From Cyanobacteria bacterium auto_48_18 (GTDB lineage: Bacteria > Cyanobacteriota > Vampirovibrionia > Obscuribacterales > Obscuribacteraceae): 64,000 nt of DNA. This document shows positions 11,011 to 18,137 of this stretch, one piece after another (position 1 is the first letter of the stretch; every line of letters starts with the position of its first letter). Where the stretch lies: assembly GCA_036170915.1 (NCBI GenBank), contig JAVHQC010000010.1:64001-128000 (forward strand). Direction: 5' to 3'. The notes beneath the pieces were generated by a model. That model saw nothing but the letters and a program-made list of their open reading frames with translations. It did not search any database and was not told the origin of the DNA. The translations under genes were made by a program, and so were the position numbers.

Positions 11011-11850
11011 ATGAAGCCTCCTAAACAACGCCACCTGGCTACCATAGTCATATCAATCGCCCTGATTGTTTTTGGCTTGGTCTTGAGTTTAGTGCAAGAC
11101 ATCATTCGGCTGCCAGTGACAATCATGGCCGCTTGCACCAGGGCTACCACACCGGCAACACCCGATTTTTCCAAATATGACGCTCTGCTCAAAAGCATTG
11201 TCAAAGACGGAAAGGTTGATTATCGCAAGGCAAAAAGCGAGCCTTTGCTTGGCGCTGCTTTAGACGCACTGGCCACCACCAGCTGCGAAAAATTCACCAG
11301 CAATGATGATATTCTCTGCTACTGGATCAACGCTCACAACCTGCTCTGCATCAAACTAGTTTGCGATCATTATCCTCTTGAAACACTTTTTCCCGTGCGG
11401 CGAAAATTTATTGCCGACCGTTTTGTGGTTGGCGGAAAAACTATGTCAATCGAAGAAATTTTGGTTGATAAAATCCATCCCCGCGTGCTTGGCGATGATA
11501 GAAGAATAGCCGCGCCTGCTCTGGCTATTTTCCTGATTTGCCGCGGCTCCCTTGGCTACCCGCAACTGGTTGATCACGCCATTACCGCTTCTACAATGAT
11601 GGCTGACATGAATGCCAATATGGACCTCTTTTTGCACAACCCTCAAAACGTAGACTACCAGCCAAATTTATCGACTATTGATATTTCTCAGTTTTTCCAA
11701 TGGTATCGTGATGTCTTTGGCCAGGGCTTTTCAGACCCCTGGGAGTTCGTTCTTTATCATTACGATAAAGACGATAAACTGACCACTGATGCCCGCTTAG
11801 AAAAAAGATTTTTTGGCAAATTTAACTGGAGCGTCAATGACCGTAAATAA
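11011..11850 (+). CDS. DUF547 domain protein
   Basis: YDALLKSIVKDGKVDY, YWINAHN, ISQFFQWYRDVF and FNWSVND match the DUF547 pattern. Confidence 0.8.
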   Translation: MKPPKQRHLATIVISIALIVFGLVLSLVQDIIRLPVTIMAACTRATTPATPDFSKYDALLKSIVKDGKVDYRKAKSEPLLGAALDALATTSCEKFTSNDDILCYWINAHNLLCIKLVCDHYPLETLFPVRRKFIADRFVVGGKTMSIEEILVDKIHPRVLGDDRRIAAPALAIFLICRGSLGYPQLVDHAITASTMMADMNANMDLFLHNPQNVDYQPNLSTIDISQFFQWYRDVFGQGFSDPWEFVLYHYDKDDKLTTDARLEKRFFGKFNWSVNDRK

Positions 11851-13870
11851 CGTGGCCTCGCGGGCGATGGCTACTTTCACTACAGTATCGGTGGCACTGC
11901 TTACCAGTTCTTGTGCCACGAGTGCTCAGGTAGAAAACGGTAGTCAGGCCAATACTTTCGGTACCGCTGGTAGTGTCGTTAAACCTCTGGTGCCTGTTAA
12001 AAAATATGTGCGCCCAAAACTCTCCCCTGATCGTCCACTGCTCATAGTCTATCCTTCGCCGGCAGCCAATGTGCCTTCGTCAGGGTCTTTCATTATTGGT
12101 TCTACTTATCCTGGCTACACCCTGACGGTCAATGGCCAAAATGTGCTTATTAATAAAGAAGGTTTCTTTGCTCACGTGATTGCGCTCAATCGGGGGAAAA
12201 ATCAATTTGATTTACGCGTCAGCAACGCTGAAGGCAATCAGATTTATAGTCAATCGCTGGATGTACAAAGAGAGCAAGCGCGCCAATCTCTGCCGGCCAC
12301 ATCATTCGAATTTGCTAAAGACAGCTTTGAACCAAAAGACGATCGCGGCGTCAATGTAGGCGAAATTATTGAGTTTGCTGTACGTGCCACACCAGGCTGT
12401 CAGGCGCAAGTAATTCTTGGCAAAAAACATATTGCTCTATCACCAATTAACAACTTGCGCGTGGCGCACAGTGCCATGGGTCGCAGAAAGAGCAGCGCAA
12501 CTAAACTGCCTGGTTCAGCCATTAACCGTGGTATGGAAGCGGCCTACGGCCAGATGTTCCAGCGTCACTCGAATGCTGCTGATCTTTACGTCGGCTTATA
12601 TAGAGTAGAGGCGGGCGACAATTTCGAACAAGAACATCCACGCTTTCTCTTGCAAAAAGCGGGACAAAGCATCACCACGGCTGGTGCCGCAGCAATTACC
12701 GTGTTACGCCAGCCGCAAATTGCTCGCACCGCCCACGATGAAACAATTACTCGAGTAGCCCCTGACTTAGCCAGACTGACGCCTCTGCCTCAAGGTGTAA
12801 GGCTGCTTGTAGACGGCTATCAGGGCGAGAATATTCGCTGTCGCTACACGCCATCAAAACATATCTGGATCAAAAGAGAAGATCTCGATTTTGAAGAAAC
12901 CGGCAGCCCTGCACCAGAAGCAGTGGCACGCACTATAATAGTCAAACAAGATAACTACGGCGAAAGTCTCGTAATTCCGCTCAGCCAGCGTCTACCTTTT
13001 ATAATTGAACAAAATCTCAAAACGAATCACTTAATGGTCAAAATCTTTGGTGTCAGCGCCGACACTGACTGGGTTTATCAAGCTCCTGATGACAGCGGCA
13101 ATTCACATTTAATTGAAAACGTTTCCTGGAAACAACCTGAAGACCATGTCTACCAGATTGATGTTGATCTTAAAGGCTTGCGCCAGTGGGGCTATTTCGC
13201 CGACTTCGATGACAACAATCTCAATATTCATATAAAGAATGCTCCAAAAATCGATTTACCAATAGCCACTTCTGCCGGCCCGGCCGCCGAGGAAGCTGAA
13301 GTTGCCTCACTAAGCAGGCTTAAAGGTTTAACGGTTTGCATCGACCCTGGTCACGGCGGCAAAGAAACCGGCGCAATTGGTCCCTCCGCCATACGCGAAG
13401 CTGAAATCAACCTTGCCATTGCTCTAAAATTGCGTGATCTGCTTAAAGCCGATGGCGCCACTGTTTTCATGACCAGAGAAGATGATACGGATGTTTCACT
13501 GAATGACCGAGTTGATTTCGCCAAAGCAAAAAAAGTGGATCTTCTGATTTCAGTGCATAATAATGCTCTGCCTGACGGACGCGATCCGGTCAAAGAGCAT
13601 GGCACGTCAACCTACTGGTATCACCCGCAGTCTCAAGAGCTGGCGCGCGCTCTCAAAAATGGTGCGGCTAAAGAGCTGGGTTTTCCTGACATTGGCGCGC
13701 GTTATCAGAACCTGGCACTGTGCAGGCCCACCAATATGCAAGCCGTTCTAGTTGAAGTCGGTTTTGTCTCAAACCCTGATGAGTATGCTCGTTTGATCAA
13801 TCCAACCTGGCAAACCAAAGCTGCTCAAGGAATACTCAACGGTTTACATTACTACTTTGGACGCAATTAG
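11837..13870 (+). CDS. N-acetylmuramoyl-L-alanine amidase (Amidase_3) with N-terminal accessory domains
   Basis: IDPGHGG, E-A-E-I-N, ISVHNNA and VLVEVGF zinc motifs; ATG 11837 follows a GGAG RBS. Confidence 0.9.
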   Translation: MTVNNVASRAMATFTTVSVALLTSSCATSAQVENGSQANTFGTAGSVVKPLVPVKKYVRPKLSPDRPLLIVYPSPAANVPSSGSFIIGSTYPGYTLTVNGQNVLINKEGFFAHVIALNRGKNQFDLRVSNAEGNQIYSQSLDVQREQARQSLPATSFEFAKDSFEPKDDRGVNVGEIIEFAVRATPGCQAQVILGKKHIALSPINNLRVAHSAMGRRKSSATKLPGSAINRGMEAAYGQMFQRHSNAADLYVGLYRVEAGDNFEQEHPRFLLQKAGQSITTAGAAAITVLRQPQIARTAHDETITRVAPDLARLTPLPQGVRLLVDGYQGENIRCRYTPSKHIWIKREDLDFEETGSPAPEAVARTIIVKQDNYGESLVIPLSQRLPFIIEQNLKTNHLMVKIFGVSADTDWVYQAPDDSGNSHLIENVSWKQPEDHVYQIDVDLKGLRQWGYFADFDDNNLNIHIKNAPKIDLPIATSAGPAAEEAEVASLSRLKGLTVCIDPGHGGKETGAIGPSAIREAEINLAIALKLRDLLKADGATVFMTREDDTDVSLNDRVDFAKAKKVDLLISVHNNALPDGRDPVKEHGTSTYWYHPQSQELARALKNGAAKELGFPDIGARYQNLALCRPTNMQAVLVEVGFVSNPDEYARLINPTWQTKAAQGILNGLHYYFGRN

Positions 13871-13877
13871 AGACTCG

Positions 13878-14660
13878 ATGAAATCAGAAAGGGCTCTTGC
13901 CATCGATATTGGAAACTCAAGAATTTGCTGTGGATTGTTTGTCGACAGTGAGTTGAGCGAAACCTGGAATTACAGTACTGCTGACCCAGCTACTGCCGCC
14001 AGCCACCTCAATAGCTTGAATAGCAAATACGGGCGCGGATTAATTGCAGTGTCATCGGTGGTGCCCTCCACTCTTCCTAAAATGGTGGCAAACTGGCCCC
14101 AGGCGCAAAACAAAATATTTGAAGTAACCGCCCGCAGTCAAAATTTACTTTCTGGACTTTACGAGACGATGGGTTCAGACCGCATCGCCAACGCTGCAGC
14201 GGCTTATAAACTGCATACATCAAATAATGATGCCGCCATTGTGATTGATTTTGGTACTGCCACCACTTTGACCGCAGTCAATAATAAAGGCAATTTTCTT
14301 GGTGGCATGATCACTCTTGGTCTGATAAAAACTTTCCACGCACTGCACTATTCAACTGCGCAGCTGCCCGAACTTTCGGTGCAAGAAGTAGAAAGTCATT
14401 CTATTTCTTCGCCCCTTGCTTTCGATACGCAAATGACAATTGAACGTGGTTGCGTTATCGGACACATCGGCCTGGTCAAACATTGGATAGAAAGAGCTCT
14501 GAAGAGCCTTCCCAGCAATACTACGGTAATAGCTACCGGCGGATTGGCACCACTTCTGGCACCAGCGGTGGAGCTATTTGATCATGTCGACGTTAATCTA
14601 ACTTTGAAAGGAATCAAAATTATTGGCGAGGCGGCAAAGCACCAAGCGGGTCAAGTTTGA
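13878..14660 (+). CDS. coaX: Type III pantothenate kinase
   Basis: AIDIGNS, SSVVP, GSDR, IDFGTATT, GGMI, ATGG. Confidence 0.92.
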   Translation: MKSERALAIDIGNSRICCGLFVDSELSETWNYSTADPATAASHLNSLNSKYGRGLIAVSSVVPSTLPKMVANWPQAQNKIFEVTARSQNLLSGLYETMGSDRIANAAAAYKLHTSNNDAAIVIDFGTATTLTAVNNKGNFLGGMITLGLIKTFHALHYSTAQLPELSVQEVESHSISSPLAFDTQMTIERGCVIGHIGLVKHWIERALKSLPSNTTVIATGGLAPLLAPAVELFDHVDVNLTLKGIKIIGEAAKHQAGQV

Positions 14661-15521: not shown

Positions 15522-16934
15522 CTAACTCTTAGCCAGTGCGCCCTGTTTGCGCTTTTCGCTCCAGCCATCAACATTGCTTTGTTTGCCTCGCGCCACAGCC
15601 AGTGCGCCATCGGGCACCGGCTTCGTGATCACGCTACCAGCGGCTACCACAGCTTCAACGCCGAGCTCGACTGGTGCTACCAGCACTGAGTTACTTCCGG
15701 TAGAAGCACCGTCATTAATGACCGTACGCGCTTTTCTCTTAGTCAGGTGATCATAATTGGCAGTAATAGTACCCGCACCAATATTGACGTTATTACCTAA
15801 AGTAGCGTCGCCGACATAACTCAAATGCGAGACATTTGACTTGTTGCCTACCTGTGCTTTTTTCAATTCGACAAAATTTCCCACTTTAGAGCCGTTGCCC
15901 ACACTGTTGCCTTCGCGCATATGTGCAAACGGGCCGACTTTGCAATTTTCGCCAATGGTCGAATCATTCATGTGTGAATTAACGACTGATGATCCGCTGC
16001 CCACAATCACACGACCTTTCATTACGGTATAAGGCCCAATATGGCAGCCGGCGCCAATTTCAATGTTACCGATTAAGTAACAGCCTGGCAAAATAACAGT
16101 TTCTTCGCCGATGGTCACTTCCGGTGCAATCCAGGTTGAACTGGGATCAATTATAGTGACACCCGACTCTAGAGCCAGTTTAGTAGCGGTGATATCGCGC
16201 AAGTGTACCGTTGCTTCGGCTAATTCCACTCGTGAATTAATGCCGCAAACTTCACGAAAGTCAGTCAGTACAACAGTTTCAGTTACGTGCTTCTGGTGAT
16301 AGGCCCATGCCACCAGATCGGTCAGATAATATTCCTTCTGTCGGTTGTCGCACGAAAGCGAGCTCAAGCCGGAAGCCGCAGCGGGCCATTCGATGCAATA
16401 AATACCGGTGTTGACCTCAGTAATCAGTTTTTCTCCGGGCGAACAATCTTTGTCTTCGACGATGCCTCTGACTTTGCCATCTTGATCGCGCACCATTCTG
16501 CCGTAACTTTTGGCATCAGGAACTACTGTGCTCAGAGCTGTTATCACAGCTTTACTCTCACGGTGACTGGCTAAAAGACGCGCCAGTGTGTCACTTTGCA
16601 AAACCGGTACGTCGCCCACAGTGACGAGTAAAGTGCCAACAAAATCATTCAAGGCCGGTACAACTTGCATCACAGCGTGGCCTGTGCCTAGCTGCGGCGC
16701 CTGCAAATGAGTAGAAAACGGGCAGTTGGGCGGATTTTTGTGGACGAACTCACTGACCACTTCGGCGGAGTGTCCAACCACCAGGTGTAAATGCTCGAGC
16801 CCTAGAGCTCCCACAGCGTCCATCACTCGGCTGAGAATGGCGCGCCCCATAACCTCATGCAGCACCTTCGGCCGACTGGATTTCATCCGTTTACCTTGAC
16901 CGGCAGCCAGCACGATAGCTCTAACAGGTAGCAT
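15522..16934 (-). CDS. glmU: Bifunctional UDP-GlcNAc pyrophosphorylase / GlcN-1-P acetyltransferase
   Basis: LAAGQGKRMKS, LGTGHAV, EYYLTD, hexapeptide repeats, HLSYVGDA, GAGTITANYD. Confidence 0.97.
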   Translation of the reverse strand: MLPVRAIVLAAGQGKRMKSSRPKVLHEVMGRAILSRVMDAVGALGLEHLHLVVGHSAEVVSEFVHKNPPNCPFSTHLQAPQLGTGHAVMQVVPALNDFVGTLLVTVGDVPVLQSDTLARLLASHRESKAVITALSTVVPDAKSYGRMVRDQDGKVRGIVEDKDCSPGEKLITEVNTGIYCIEWPAAASGLSSLSCDNRQKEYYLTDLVAWAYHQKHVTETVVLTDFREVCGINSRVELAEATVHLRDITATKLALESGVTIIDPSSTWIAPEVTIGEETVILPGCYLIGNIEIGAGCHIGPYTVMKGRVIVGSGSSVVNSHMNDSTIGENCKVGPFAHMREGNSVGNGSKVGNFVELKKAQVGNKSNVSHLSYVGDATLGNNVNIGAGTITANYDHLTKRKARTVINDGASTGSNSVLVAPVELGVEAVVAAGSVITKPVPDGALAVARGKQSNVDGWSEKRKQGALAKS

Positions 16935-16979
16935 GATTTACTCCATAAACGCAGAGTGAAGATTATAAGCCGTCGCCAT

Positions 16980-17012
16980 AAAAAAAAGCCCCACCGCTTG
17001 GTGAGGCCTTTT
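16980..17012 (-). terminator. Rho-independent terminator on the minus strand, upstream of glmU
   Basis: Minus strand AAGGCCTCACC-AAGC-GGTGGGGCTTT then a U-run; two G-U wobbles pair only on the minus strand. Confidence 0.75.
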
Positions 17013-17090
17013 GAAATGTCCGCAGTGTTGGTGCCGCCCCAACAGACTCAATCCCTTGTGTCTCTCGTACTGGAGTTCCTGCGATGAACA
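16980..17090 (-). ncRNA. Candidate structured small RNA or leader RNA, family not recognised
   Basis: Nested stems CGCAG/CTGCG, ACTCCAGT/ATTGAGT and TGTTGG/CCAACA, then a terminator; TAATAT -10-like hexamer at 17094-17099. Confidence 0.45.
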
Positions 17091-17264
17091 AATATATTAT
17101 TTCCCATCAAACCTCATAAAACCTACGCTTTTAACCTTTCGTTTATTATGCCCGTAACAAGCGTAATACTACGTGGCATATACAATATGTACTCTGGGTG
17201 TGTACAAGATGTGAACATAACCCTGACCGTAGTACCACTTTAACCTGGCTATGAAATAGACGGA

Positions 17265-18137
17265 ATGACTACAAGAATGTTTCCACGGTGTTACAAAGAA
17301 ACTTTGACGGCAGCCCAAAAGGTTTGCTGCTATTGCCTCTTCCTCATTACAAGTGTAACGTTCATGGTCTCAAGTTATCCGCCGGCAAGTGCTCAATATC
17401 GCAAACCGCAGACGAGACCAGCTCAAAGTGGAGCAGCTACAGTCTATCCGGAATACCGCAGCCGTTATGGCAGTGTGCACTGGGTGCGCGACCAGATGCC
17501 GCTCAAAGTCTACATCTCCCCTGGTCTGACTTTAGACAGCATCATGGATCCTAAATGGGGCGCGCCTGTTGCCAACACAGACAATCTGGCAGCCTGGCCC
17601 AACCTGGTTGCCCAGGTAGTTTCAGACCCAGAGCAATTTCGGGCGCTGAAACCGGCAGATGGCTACGTAGCCGGCCATTACCAGGCGGCACTGGAAGGGG
17701 TGCTGTCATGGAAAATTTTTGAACGGGAAGGCTTGTTTTCATATCAGTTGACTGATGATCCTGGCGAAGCCGACATTTATGTCTTCTTTACCAATCACTT
17801 TGTCGGCAAGAACGGCATGGCGCTGTTCTCTCAAGACGTTCGGGGCTACACATCTAAAACAAACTTTCCCTACAAAGCCATTCTGGCGGGCGGCCAGGCC
17901 GATTTTAAACCAGCTGTAATTGTGTTGCGCACCACTGATGGTCAAGGGCAACCCATGGCACTGGGTAAATTGAAAGCAGCTGCTACTCACGAATTTGGCC
18001 ACGCCCTTGGCATAGAAGGCCACAGCACTAATCCGGGAGACTTAATGAGTCTCTATTATGGCCGTGGAGTAATATCGCCTAATGACGCGGCTACAATCAG
18101 GCATCTTTATCATCTGACACCAGATTTAATACCATAG
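17265..18137 (+). CDS. Matrixin-like (M10/metzincin) zinc metalloprotease, secreted
   Basis: HEFGHALGIEGH zinc motif, DLM Met-turn, signal-like N-terminus. Confidence 0.85.
   Translation: MTTRMFPRCYKETLTAAQKVCCYCLFLITSVTFMVSSYPPASAQYRKPQTRPAQSGAATVYPEYRSRYGSVHWVRDQMPLKVYISPGLTLDSIMDPKWGAPVANTDNLAAWPNLVAQVVSDPEQFRALKPADGYVAGHYQAALEGVLSWKIFEREGLFSYQLTDDPGEADIYVFFTNHFVGKNGMALFSQDVRGYTSKTNFPYKAILAGGQADFKPAVIVLRTTDGQGQPMALGKLKAAATHEFGHALGIEGHSTNPGDLMSLYYGRGVISPNDAATIRHLYHLTPDLIP

Follow-up and report, generated by a model that had tools for sequence, protein, structure and literature searches.

What is the sequence upstream of glmU in this genome, and does it control glmU? The window, a stretch of 64,000 nucleotides from contig JAVHQC010000010.1, comes from a member of the order Obscuribacterales. 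The original prediction described there a minus-strand RNA with an intrinsic terminator, folded as a three-way junction. It proposed either an attenuator or riboswitch for UDP-GlcNAc synthesis, or a stand-alone small RNA. The locus contains the following features.

15522..16934, minus strand: glmU, 470 aa (open reading frame with orthologues; name from sequence)
16962..16967, minus strand: separate TATAAT -10 for glmU, 3' of the terminator, conserved in the genus
16980..17009, minus strand: intrinsic terminator, hairpin plus U8 (pair probability 1.0)
17017..17084, minus strand: cloverleaf core, 68 nt (covariation and model matches)
17017..17020, minus strand: 3' tail R-N-C-A beyond the closing stem
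17027..17043, minus strand: T-like arm, 5 bp, with a 7-nt loop N-G-C-R-N-Y-A (17038-17032)
17044..17063, minus strand: arm at the anticodon position, 8 bp, invariant A-U closing pair, GGGA tetraloop (17055-17052)
17064..17075, minus strand: D-like arm, 3 bp, with a 4-7-nt loop N-A-G-N and a near-invariant AG
17078..17084, minus strand: closing (acceptor-like) stem, 5' strand, partner 17026-17020
17094..17102, minus strand: predicted -10 of the RNA gene, family consensus TAcAAaT (position weight matrix, 69 sites)
17131..17146, minus strand: upstream box, 16 bp, an imperfect TTAA-N8-TTAA dyad, 26-29 nt 5' of the -10
17265..18137, plus strand: divergent gene with a Peptidase_M10 (matrixin) motif (Pfam E 6.7e-7)

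The predicted terminator and U-run are present at 16980-17009, and their end lies 45 nt 5' of the glmU ATG (16934). Likewise, the two hexamers are found as claimed, TAATAT at 17099-17094 and TATAAT at 16967-16962. The first overlaps the predicted -10 of the RNA gene, whose start is predicted near 17090. A simple scanner run on the locus called no terminator, and neither hexamer was called as a promoter. The predicted -10 and the hairpin with its U-run would serve as promoter and terminator of the RNA gene. The expected RNA would be about 110 nt long, or about 70 nt after trimming. Just 5' of the box, two TTAC(G) direct repeats, 10 nt apart, occupy 17152-17170 and are conserved in the genus; they resemble an OmpR-family site. 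Near glmU the window also has genes like those for N-acetylmuramoyl-L-alanine amidase and type III pantothenate kinase (11813-14660; named from sequence motifs).

The folding energy of the core alone is no better than that of shuffles (z -1.03 on the minus strand and -1.12 on the plus strand). A z of -3.6 was obtained only with the terminator included in the folded segment. With no significant core energy on either strand, the case has to be made by comparing relatives. The minus strand had been favoured because most G-U wobbles pair only there. Covariation and the terminator agree with that orientation, but the folding energy lends it nothing, both strands being alike.

Within the genus, 14 of 15 genomes share exactly the same 68-nt core, and the fifteenth has one base changed. 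By contrast, in 12 of the 15 the 33 nt 5' of the core differ at 17-22 positions (ungapped), and the glmU proteins are 80-96% identical within the genus, against the near-unchanged RNA core. The original prediction had proposed to collect the glmU upstream regions of relatives and examine their covariation. We took glmU orthologues from 61 genomes and fetched 30 loci. The element lies directly 5' of glmU in 24 of these 30, and one more locus has it inverted, 900 nt away. Covariation analysis of the collected regions revealed a conserved, covarying RNA. Core conservation and covariation together show that the RNA is more than chance, and the cloverleaf is very probably a stand-alone structured RNA.

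No known RNA family had been recognised at this locus, and an Infernal search of Rfam bears this out. At the gathering score of Rfam 15, a tRNA-Ala was the only match in the window. Four chance matches appeared in 16900-17300 at E up to 10 (best E 1.5-5.7), and the two on the minus strand score mainly on the terminator. Ten homologue loci searched at E up to 1 gave eight sub-threshold matches, none over the core. The literature searched on Melainabacteria and Obscuribacter RNAs yielded no description of it, an unnamed entry in supplementary motif catalogues being possible. The family is real and apparently undescribed. Four sequencing runs contained only about 5% of the words; all were assembled contigs of relatives less than 90% alike and spanned the promoter region, so they give evidence of neither transcription nor transcript ends.

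We compared the three-way junction with a four-way cloverleaf on 12 distinct sequences. In the cloverleaf, 93.5% of the cells are paired, nine pairs show two-sided changes, and none of 500 shuffles was as good. The three-way fold pairs 76.1% of the cells and was matched by 203 of 500 shuffles. In the window copy, the cloverleaf is also more stable by 4.9 kcal/mol. We therefore reject the three-way junction. Some of its helices survive. The hairpin GTTGG/CCAAC of the predicted TGTTGG/CCAACA arm is confirmed in the sequence. The inner part of the closing stem, CGCAG/CTGCG, is present, but its outer part, TGTT/GACA, is only 33% paired. The predicted arm ACTCCAGT/ATTGAGT pairs in 71% of the cells with zero two-sided changes and does not stand.

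Larger samples describe the helices. Two-sided changes occur in 15 of 23 pairs, at least two per helix, among 64 distinct model-found copies, whose alignment was fitted to the covariance model itself. They affect seven of the eight pairs in the arm at the anticodon position and three of the five in the T-like arm. A second alignment holds 147 distinct cores found by a pattern that fixes helix lengths and several bases; there, each of the nine pairs with the strongest mutual information is a predicted base pair. The middle pair of the D-like arm is found as UA, CG, AU and UG in these cores. In the closing stem, the five inner pairs are always formed and the two outer ones in about 55% of the copies (1:72 in 82 of 147 cores, 7:66 in 80).

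Outside the helices, conservation is uneven. The GGGA-arm loop is invariant in 63 of 64 copies, and A-GGGA-U fits ANGGAN. The C and A of the 3' tail are present in 147 of 147 cores, although they lie outside the search pattern, and in 63 and 64 of the 64 model-found copies, respectively. The base before them (the N of N-C-A) is A in 70 cores, C in 31, G in 27 and U in 19. Junction nucleotides are variable, arm lengths are nearly fixed, and the invariant bases are at the elbow and at both arm tips. The flanks of the core do not covary in the 147 cores, and the columns of the 5' flank are unconserved.

Acceptor, D, anticodon and T helices follow each other in the order of a tRNA cloverleaf. A linker of 2 nt joins the closing stem to the D-like arm, and the variable loop is absent. 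ARAGORN called 0 of 205 copies with default or -ps90 bacterial settings. Its relaxed mitochondrial mode called 18 of 205 (16 on the sense strand), compared with 1-6 in shuffles. By column counts, the missing features of a decoding tRNA are U8, the variable loop, a 7-nt anticodon loop with U33, G18-G19 and a UUC T-loop. The RNA cannot decode, because it lacks U8, the variable loop and the 7-nt anticodon loop with U33, and ends in N-C-A, not C-C-A.

The genome of the window also has clustered tRNA genes. Two arrays of nine genes each, several of them atypical, lie outside the window (G000:C33:15652-16458 and 164122-165603). There is also a smaller tRNA triple (C11:99418-99644) and a tRNA-Sec gene (G000:C16:70006-70101). 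No tRNA-Asp was found in this assembly, which is 86% complete.

How widely is the RNA distributed? Model R1 found it in 38 of 39 sampled Obscuribacterales relatives (35 of 36 in family f1 and 3 of 3 in family f2). Model R2 found it in 29 of 30 genomes of f1 and 2 of 2 of f2. The two non-carriers of f1 do not establish absence, because their glmU locus is broken or missing in the assembly: G015 is 58% complete and has frameshifted glmU and glmS, and the G213 assembly is without glmU. In G015 the frameshifts of glmU (C4:690553-691847) and glmS (C3:53482-55357) are many and are probably assembly error, possibly decay. Outside the order, R1 found the RNA in 0 of 21 other genomes of the class and in 0 of 150 genomes across the phylum, and R2 in 0 of 118 genomes of other families in the class, the 150- and 118-genome searches using stricter filters. 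Remote homologues were absent from five genomes at E up to 5 (a search without a positive control), and from the 1.5 kb around glmU in four genomes of other orders with filters off. One search of viral contigs gave 0 matches, and a second gave nine partial ones (best 11.8 bits).

Metagenomes contained 105 stretches with the RNA. An exact pattern searched across all GTDB species matched at least 121 stretches; among the 80 matches listed, 63 are titled as Obscuribacter-type or Melainabacteria. Of the 17 otherwise-titled matches, 16 were compared with the genome of the window, and flanking proteins match in 12 and in none of the other four. Where present, the glmU of those 12 is 56-96% identical to that of the window, against 43-46% for other orders. 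The deviant titles of those 12 are probably depositor labels, since the flanking proteins match the genome of the window. On sequence evidence from the sampled genomes, the RNA class appears unique to the order Obscuribacterales.

Each carrier genome has between one and five copies, typically with a predicted promoter and terminator for each, and in the genome of the window a relaxed descriptor finds this one only. A terminator follows 126 of 193 copies, compared with 2 of 193 shuffled controls (12 of the 205 copies were dropped for a short flank). Type I copies occur in the glmU region and have the dyad box 26-29 nt 5' of the -10; the Peptidase_M10 gene is their usual upstream neighbour. A regular expression for the box, chosen after seeing the data, found it in 65 of the 104 copies of type I and in none of the 89 copies of types II and III. 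The spacing from box to -10 is 28 nt in 48 of 69 sites. Type II copies have a bulge in the T-like arm and a different -35/-10 promoter, and type III copies have a C-G middle D pair with A58. Two paralogue types correspond to two promoter types.

The dyad box stays with the RNA, not with glmU, where the two are apart. It is probably an activator site of the RNA promoter. With the box and the -10 scored together, the window site, itself part of the training set, is the best in its genome (32.2, against 22.2 for the best in the reversed genome). One further site, on C32, exceeds that control with a score of 25.4. As it is the only one, no regulon is inferred for the box. This site (G000:C32:9746) has the correct -10 spacing and precedes an unannotated 226-aa ORF beside a tRNA-Ala(CGC).

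Tandem copies each have a promoter box; in G035, three such copies each carry box and terminator, and the three in L037 each have a terminator. Whole-gene tandem duplications recur independently, at L037 (three copies), L129, L291/L391, L079, L164/L165 and L388, and this recurrence suggests selection on dosage. Two copies are strongly diverged (L388:1320-1396 and L389:959-1038). The first changes the sequence of the closing stem with compensation and keeps all loops, and the second has a GA microsatellite in place of the GGGA arm and looks decayed. A word, TGGACGATT, recurs between core and terminator in several genera (L032, L034, L037, L022, L051). It is possibly a second element or a processing site.

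Type II copies often have a MerR-like HTH gene immediately 5' of them: this holds, in both families, for 17 of the 25 genomes with that gene (of the other eight, one was examined only in part). Its product is specific to the Obscuribacterales and has an HTH, a coiled coil, a low-complexity linker of 30-450 aa and a conserved 60-aa C-terminal helical domain (L096:1155-1949, L083, L095, L075, L076, L078, L100, L098, L089, L088). This domain gave no family match and no informative look-alike. The protein could be a regulator or partner of type II copies. With one query, the gene was found in 24 of 39 carriers, and not in the genome of the window or in 15 of the 39.

Does the RNA control glmU? A cis-acting riboswitch or attenuator would be expected to stay with its gene. 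Indeed, of the 82 type I copies whose flank is 450 nt or longer, 57 have glmU directly 3' on the same strand (55 of the 205 copies were dropped from the neighbour counts because their flank was too short). In family f2, the core is only 24-26 nt from the aligned glmU start, and a U-run follows it where a hairpin terminator was not found. Given this short gap with only a U-run, read-through into glmU is possible in that family. Nevertheless, glmU is not the next gene for 25 of the 82 type I copies and for all 68 of types II and III. About 21 copies face a convergent ORF (a heuristic count), one relative (G033) has the RNA on the strand opposite glmU, and five (G017, G020, G022, G030, G034) have other genes between the two.

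Nor does the sequence offer a switch. The terminator, with its pair probability of 1.0, has no sequence in common with the core, and neither an antiterminator nor another way of pairing was found. Pairing between core and downstream sequence is no better than in shuffled sequences (-26.9 vs -26.2 kcal/mol, 198 copies). In 40 of 54 loci, against 13.3 expected, a word resembling a -10 lies no more than 75 nt from the start of glmU; the word list was chosen after seeing the data. The RNA has no consistent place 5' of related genes and no expression platform overlapping an aptamer. Moreover, a ligand pocket would be expected at the junction, and that is where the nucleotides vary. We consider control of glmU in cis extremely unlikely. 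The attenuator or riboswitch for UDP-GlcNAc synthesis lost its support, since paralogues with the same core stand beside unrelated genes. The other proposal, a stand-alone small RNA with glmU driven by its own -10, is favoured by the copies away from glmU and by the separate -10. It is the most likely reading, because copies are found far from glmU, inverted, in tandem or facing convergent genes, and no antiterminator exists. On present evidence, glmU is an ancestral neighbour and not a regulatory target.

A possible 19-aa leader ORF had also been noted over the 5' half of the RNA. The frame exists (17107-17048), but it is not conserved, and we reject it as a leader peptide. Of 18 loci, 2 have its ATG; the two closest relatives have lost it, and nine others have TTG or CTG there. 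The frame starts 5' of the predicted -10 and is thrown out of register by 1-nt indels in the D-like loop.

The invariant bases suggest a tRNA-like elbow. The T-like loop has G55, C56 and A60 in 64 of 64 copies with an invariant R57, and the D-like loop has its A in 63 and its G in 64 of the 64. More precisely, the RNA has what characterizes a T-loop in an elbow: a 5-bp stem, a 7-nt loop with G at position 2 and a purine at position 4, and a purine pair in the D-loop. A T-loop whose second base is G can accommodate an intercalating A, and YGNRA has been described as a consensus for T-loops (10.1101/2022.12.26.521914). The exact YGNRA consensus occurs in 11 of 147 cores. The commonest combination at 54/58 is G/G (119 of 147), which is outside the published consensus. 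A G/G may form the same non-canonical pair as the bases at 54/58 of YGNRA loops. In the tRNA elbow, D-loop positions 18 and 19 are used in that order (PMC4810234). The D-like loop likewise gives A and then G, the order of tRNA G18 and G19.

In the proposed elbow, the D-loop A would intercalate into the T-loop against G55, as G18 does with U55 in tRNA. The G after that A would pair with C56, like G19-C56. Outside the helices, covariation is strongest between the D-like arm and the T-like loop, where pair 11:24 varies together with 54 and 58, and position 13 with 59. All ten U59 copies carry A13, which is present in 19 of 147 cores. When phylogenetic independence was required, on a tree of low resolution with only five starred branches, 13/59 gave four pairs on supported branches (p 0.25) and 11:24/58 gave one pair (p 1), neither significant. 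Taken together, these contacts are probably formed. Without a variable loop, the L-shape of the RNA is not guaranteed.

What could such an RNA do? In the mechanism that we propose, an independently transcribed small RNA would fold as a miniature tRNA. Its closing stem would stack on the T-like arm, and its D-like arm on the GGGA-capped arm. It would act in trans by stoichiometric binding of a protein recognizing the shape of a tRNA at its two ends, namely the closing stem with its CA and the GGGA loop. The bound protein would thereby be titrated or tethered, and paralogues under different promoters would feed different signals into one target. The constant elbow and arm tips, the fixed lengths and the variable junction favour shape recognition by a large partner over a ligand pocket. 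Titration is favoured because several copies add dosage under different promoters. A tRNA-elbow mimic acting as decoy or tether, with a single protein partner for the decoy role, is a proposal that we hold tentatively.

The search for a partner found none. One of 39 carriers has CsrA, as do 8 of the 22 non-carriers, and a CsrA profile built from two class-level proteins found nothing in the genome of the window (best E 0.6). TROVE/Ro60 is encoded by 11 of the 39 carriers, but never at an RNA locus. The genome of the window has no extra class II synthetase paralogue. Among five genomes, FemAB and LPG synthase (MprF) are absent from carrier G037, and FemAB is present in non-carrier G213.

Several other functions have to be weighed against the decoy. 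A context-independent, multicopy distribution is typical of small ribozymes, and the RNA could be a compact catalytic or ligand-binding molecule. Its helices would then lie packed alongside each other and its GGGA loop would dock on the closing stem near the CA, for self-cleavage there or for binding a metabolite in trans. The invariant closing stem, the tetraloop at a fixed 8-bp distance and the CA outside the helices fit a docking site. Twister-sister likewise has a 5-bp arm with a 7-nt T-loop (10.1101/2020.11.26.399451). Yet the twister-sister model has no match at the locus, in the genome of the window or in G037, and only two weak matches elsewhere in G003. The CA lacks an enclosing outer helix (33% paired, no flank covariation), and the junction bases are variable, which argues against this reading. 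Self-cleavage is not needed to make the 3' end either, because the RNA has its own terminator. We judge this reading unlikely. An aminoacylated donor outside the ribosome is unlikely too. Such an RNA would be trimmed, receive CCA and be charged, with proline as the best fit, and would feed a transferase, possibly of the cell envelope. The proline fit assumes a 6-bp stem with C1-G72, purine 73 and a G-rich loop. Bacterial proline identity lies in G72, A73, G35 and G36 (PMC9976931); when the numbering is shifted accordingly, all 147 cores have G72 and 95 have A73, and the loop holds GGG. However, the Levitt pair and the 7-nt loop used by ProRS are missing, and the diverged paralogue L388:1320-1396 alters the stem sequence yet keeps the loops. 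The T-like loop has G55, as in non-proteogenic tRNA-Gly (PMC7826273), and the RNA is ancestrally next to glmU in both families; conversely, FemAB and LPG synthase do not co-occur with it in the five genomes tested, carrier G037 having neither. CCA is encoded in 31 of 147 cores. The other 116 are without it, and yet all keep the CA; this invariance would not follow from re-addition of CCA. For comparison, at most 24 of the 59 true tRNA genes of the genome of the window end in CCA.

Two further readings make the RNA a classical regulator. Multicopy genes with an upstream activator box recall the Rsm small RNAs. The RNA might be a sponge for a regulator that binds GGA hairpins, of the CsrA/Rsm type or an unrecognised analogue. 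The A-GGGA-U loop matches the ANGGAN hexaloop as well as the core, ARGGAU, of the SELEX consensus for CsrA (PMC7652899). But CsrA is nearly absent from carriers, the RNA offers one GGA hairpin on an 8-bp stem against many on short stems, and the invariant elbow and closing stem would be left unexplained. Such a sponge is very unlikely. Base pairing with mRNAs through the variable leader or the spacer before the terminator, with the cloverleaf as stabiliser (as was proposed for tRNA-Other), strikes us as highly improbable. Leaders vary from about 5 to 55 nt, often with hairpins, and several copies have a short conserved word before the terminator. Against this, the flanks are unconserved across the family, the window copy is almost without a leader, and the base-level invariance of the loops goes beyond the need of a stabiliser.

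Known systems help to place the RNA. YrlA is, like it, a small non-coding RNA with a tRNA-like module and near-invariant D- and T-like elements, and it tethers a protein (PMC4201824). The position within 4 kb of the Ro60 gene, the GNCGAAN motif and the long Ro-binding stem of YrlA are absent here. The arms of our RNA are in ordinary tRNA order, and TROVE is not beside any copy. Staphylococcal non-proteogenic tRNA-Gly has a cloverleaf, G55 and several copies in common with it, and a link to the cell wall (PMC7826273). Those are, however, full tRNAs with an anticodon loop and CCA, whereas the RNA is without these and without a variable loop. The tRNA-Other of Bacillus cereus is likewise tRNA-like and non-translational and has its own regulated promoter (PMC3399842). 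It is a single predicted pseudo-tRNA flanking a genomic island; here the RNA is order-wide and multicopy, under strong selection at the level of bases.

CsrB and RsmZ share the ANGGAN hexaloop, the multiple copies, the upstream box and the intrinsic terminator. They differ from the RNA, which has a single GGA loop in a rigid four-way junction and 38 of 39 carriers without CsrA. Twister-sister (RF02681) also combines a multi-way junction, a 5-bp arm with a 7-nt T-loop and a conserved CA by the closing stem. Nevertheless, the T-loop arm is the last of three in the RNA and the middle one in the four-way form of twister-sister (same study, 10.1101/2020.11.26.399451). With the glmS ribozyme and GlmY/GlmZ, the amino-sugar gene neighbourhood is the only likeness, and no structure is shared. 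So the RNA resembles YrlA and tRNA-Other as a non-decoding tRNA mimic and fails their defining features.

The decoy or tether described above remains the reading that we prefer. More broadly, and with slightly less than even confidence, we see in these RNAs order-wide, multicopy, minimal tRNA mimics. They would combine a rebuilt elbow (A/G55, G-C56), a GNRA-capped arm where a tRNA has its anticodon and an invariant non-CCA end, and be a decoy regulating a core tRNA-handling enzyme, or a new small ribozyme, or an aminoacyl donor. The regulated enzyme may be a synthetase, a nuclease, the CCA enzyme or a stringent-response factor. To our knowledge, tRNA mimics are rare among bacterial non-coding RNAs (tmRNA, Y RNAs and a small number of pseudo-tRNAs), and every one of them has uncovered new biology. 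The RNA is small, and its well-supported secondary structure with more than 140 natural variants makes cleavage, charging, probing and pull-down tests direct. It would also reveal to what extent an RNA that lacks a variable loop can rebuild the tRNA elbow. The RNA duplicated before the split of the two families. This early duplication, the tRNA-like stringency of conservation, the near-universal presence in the order and the different promoters indicate a core regulatory or housekeeping role. If this is true, the non-photosynthetic sister group of cyanobacteria would have an RNA class of housekeeping level confined to it.
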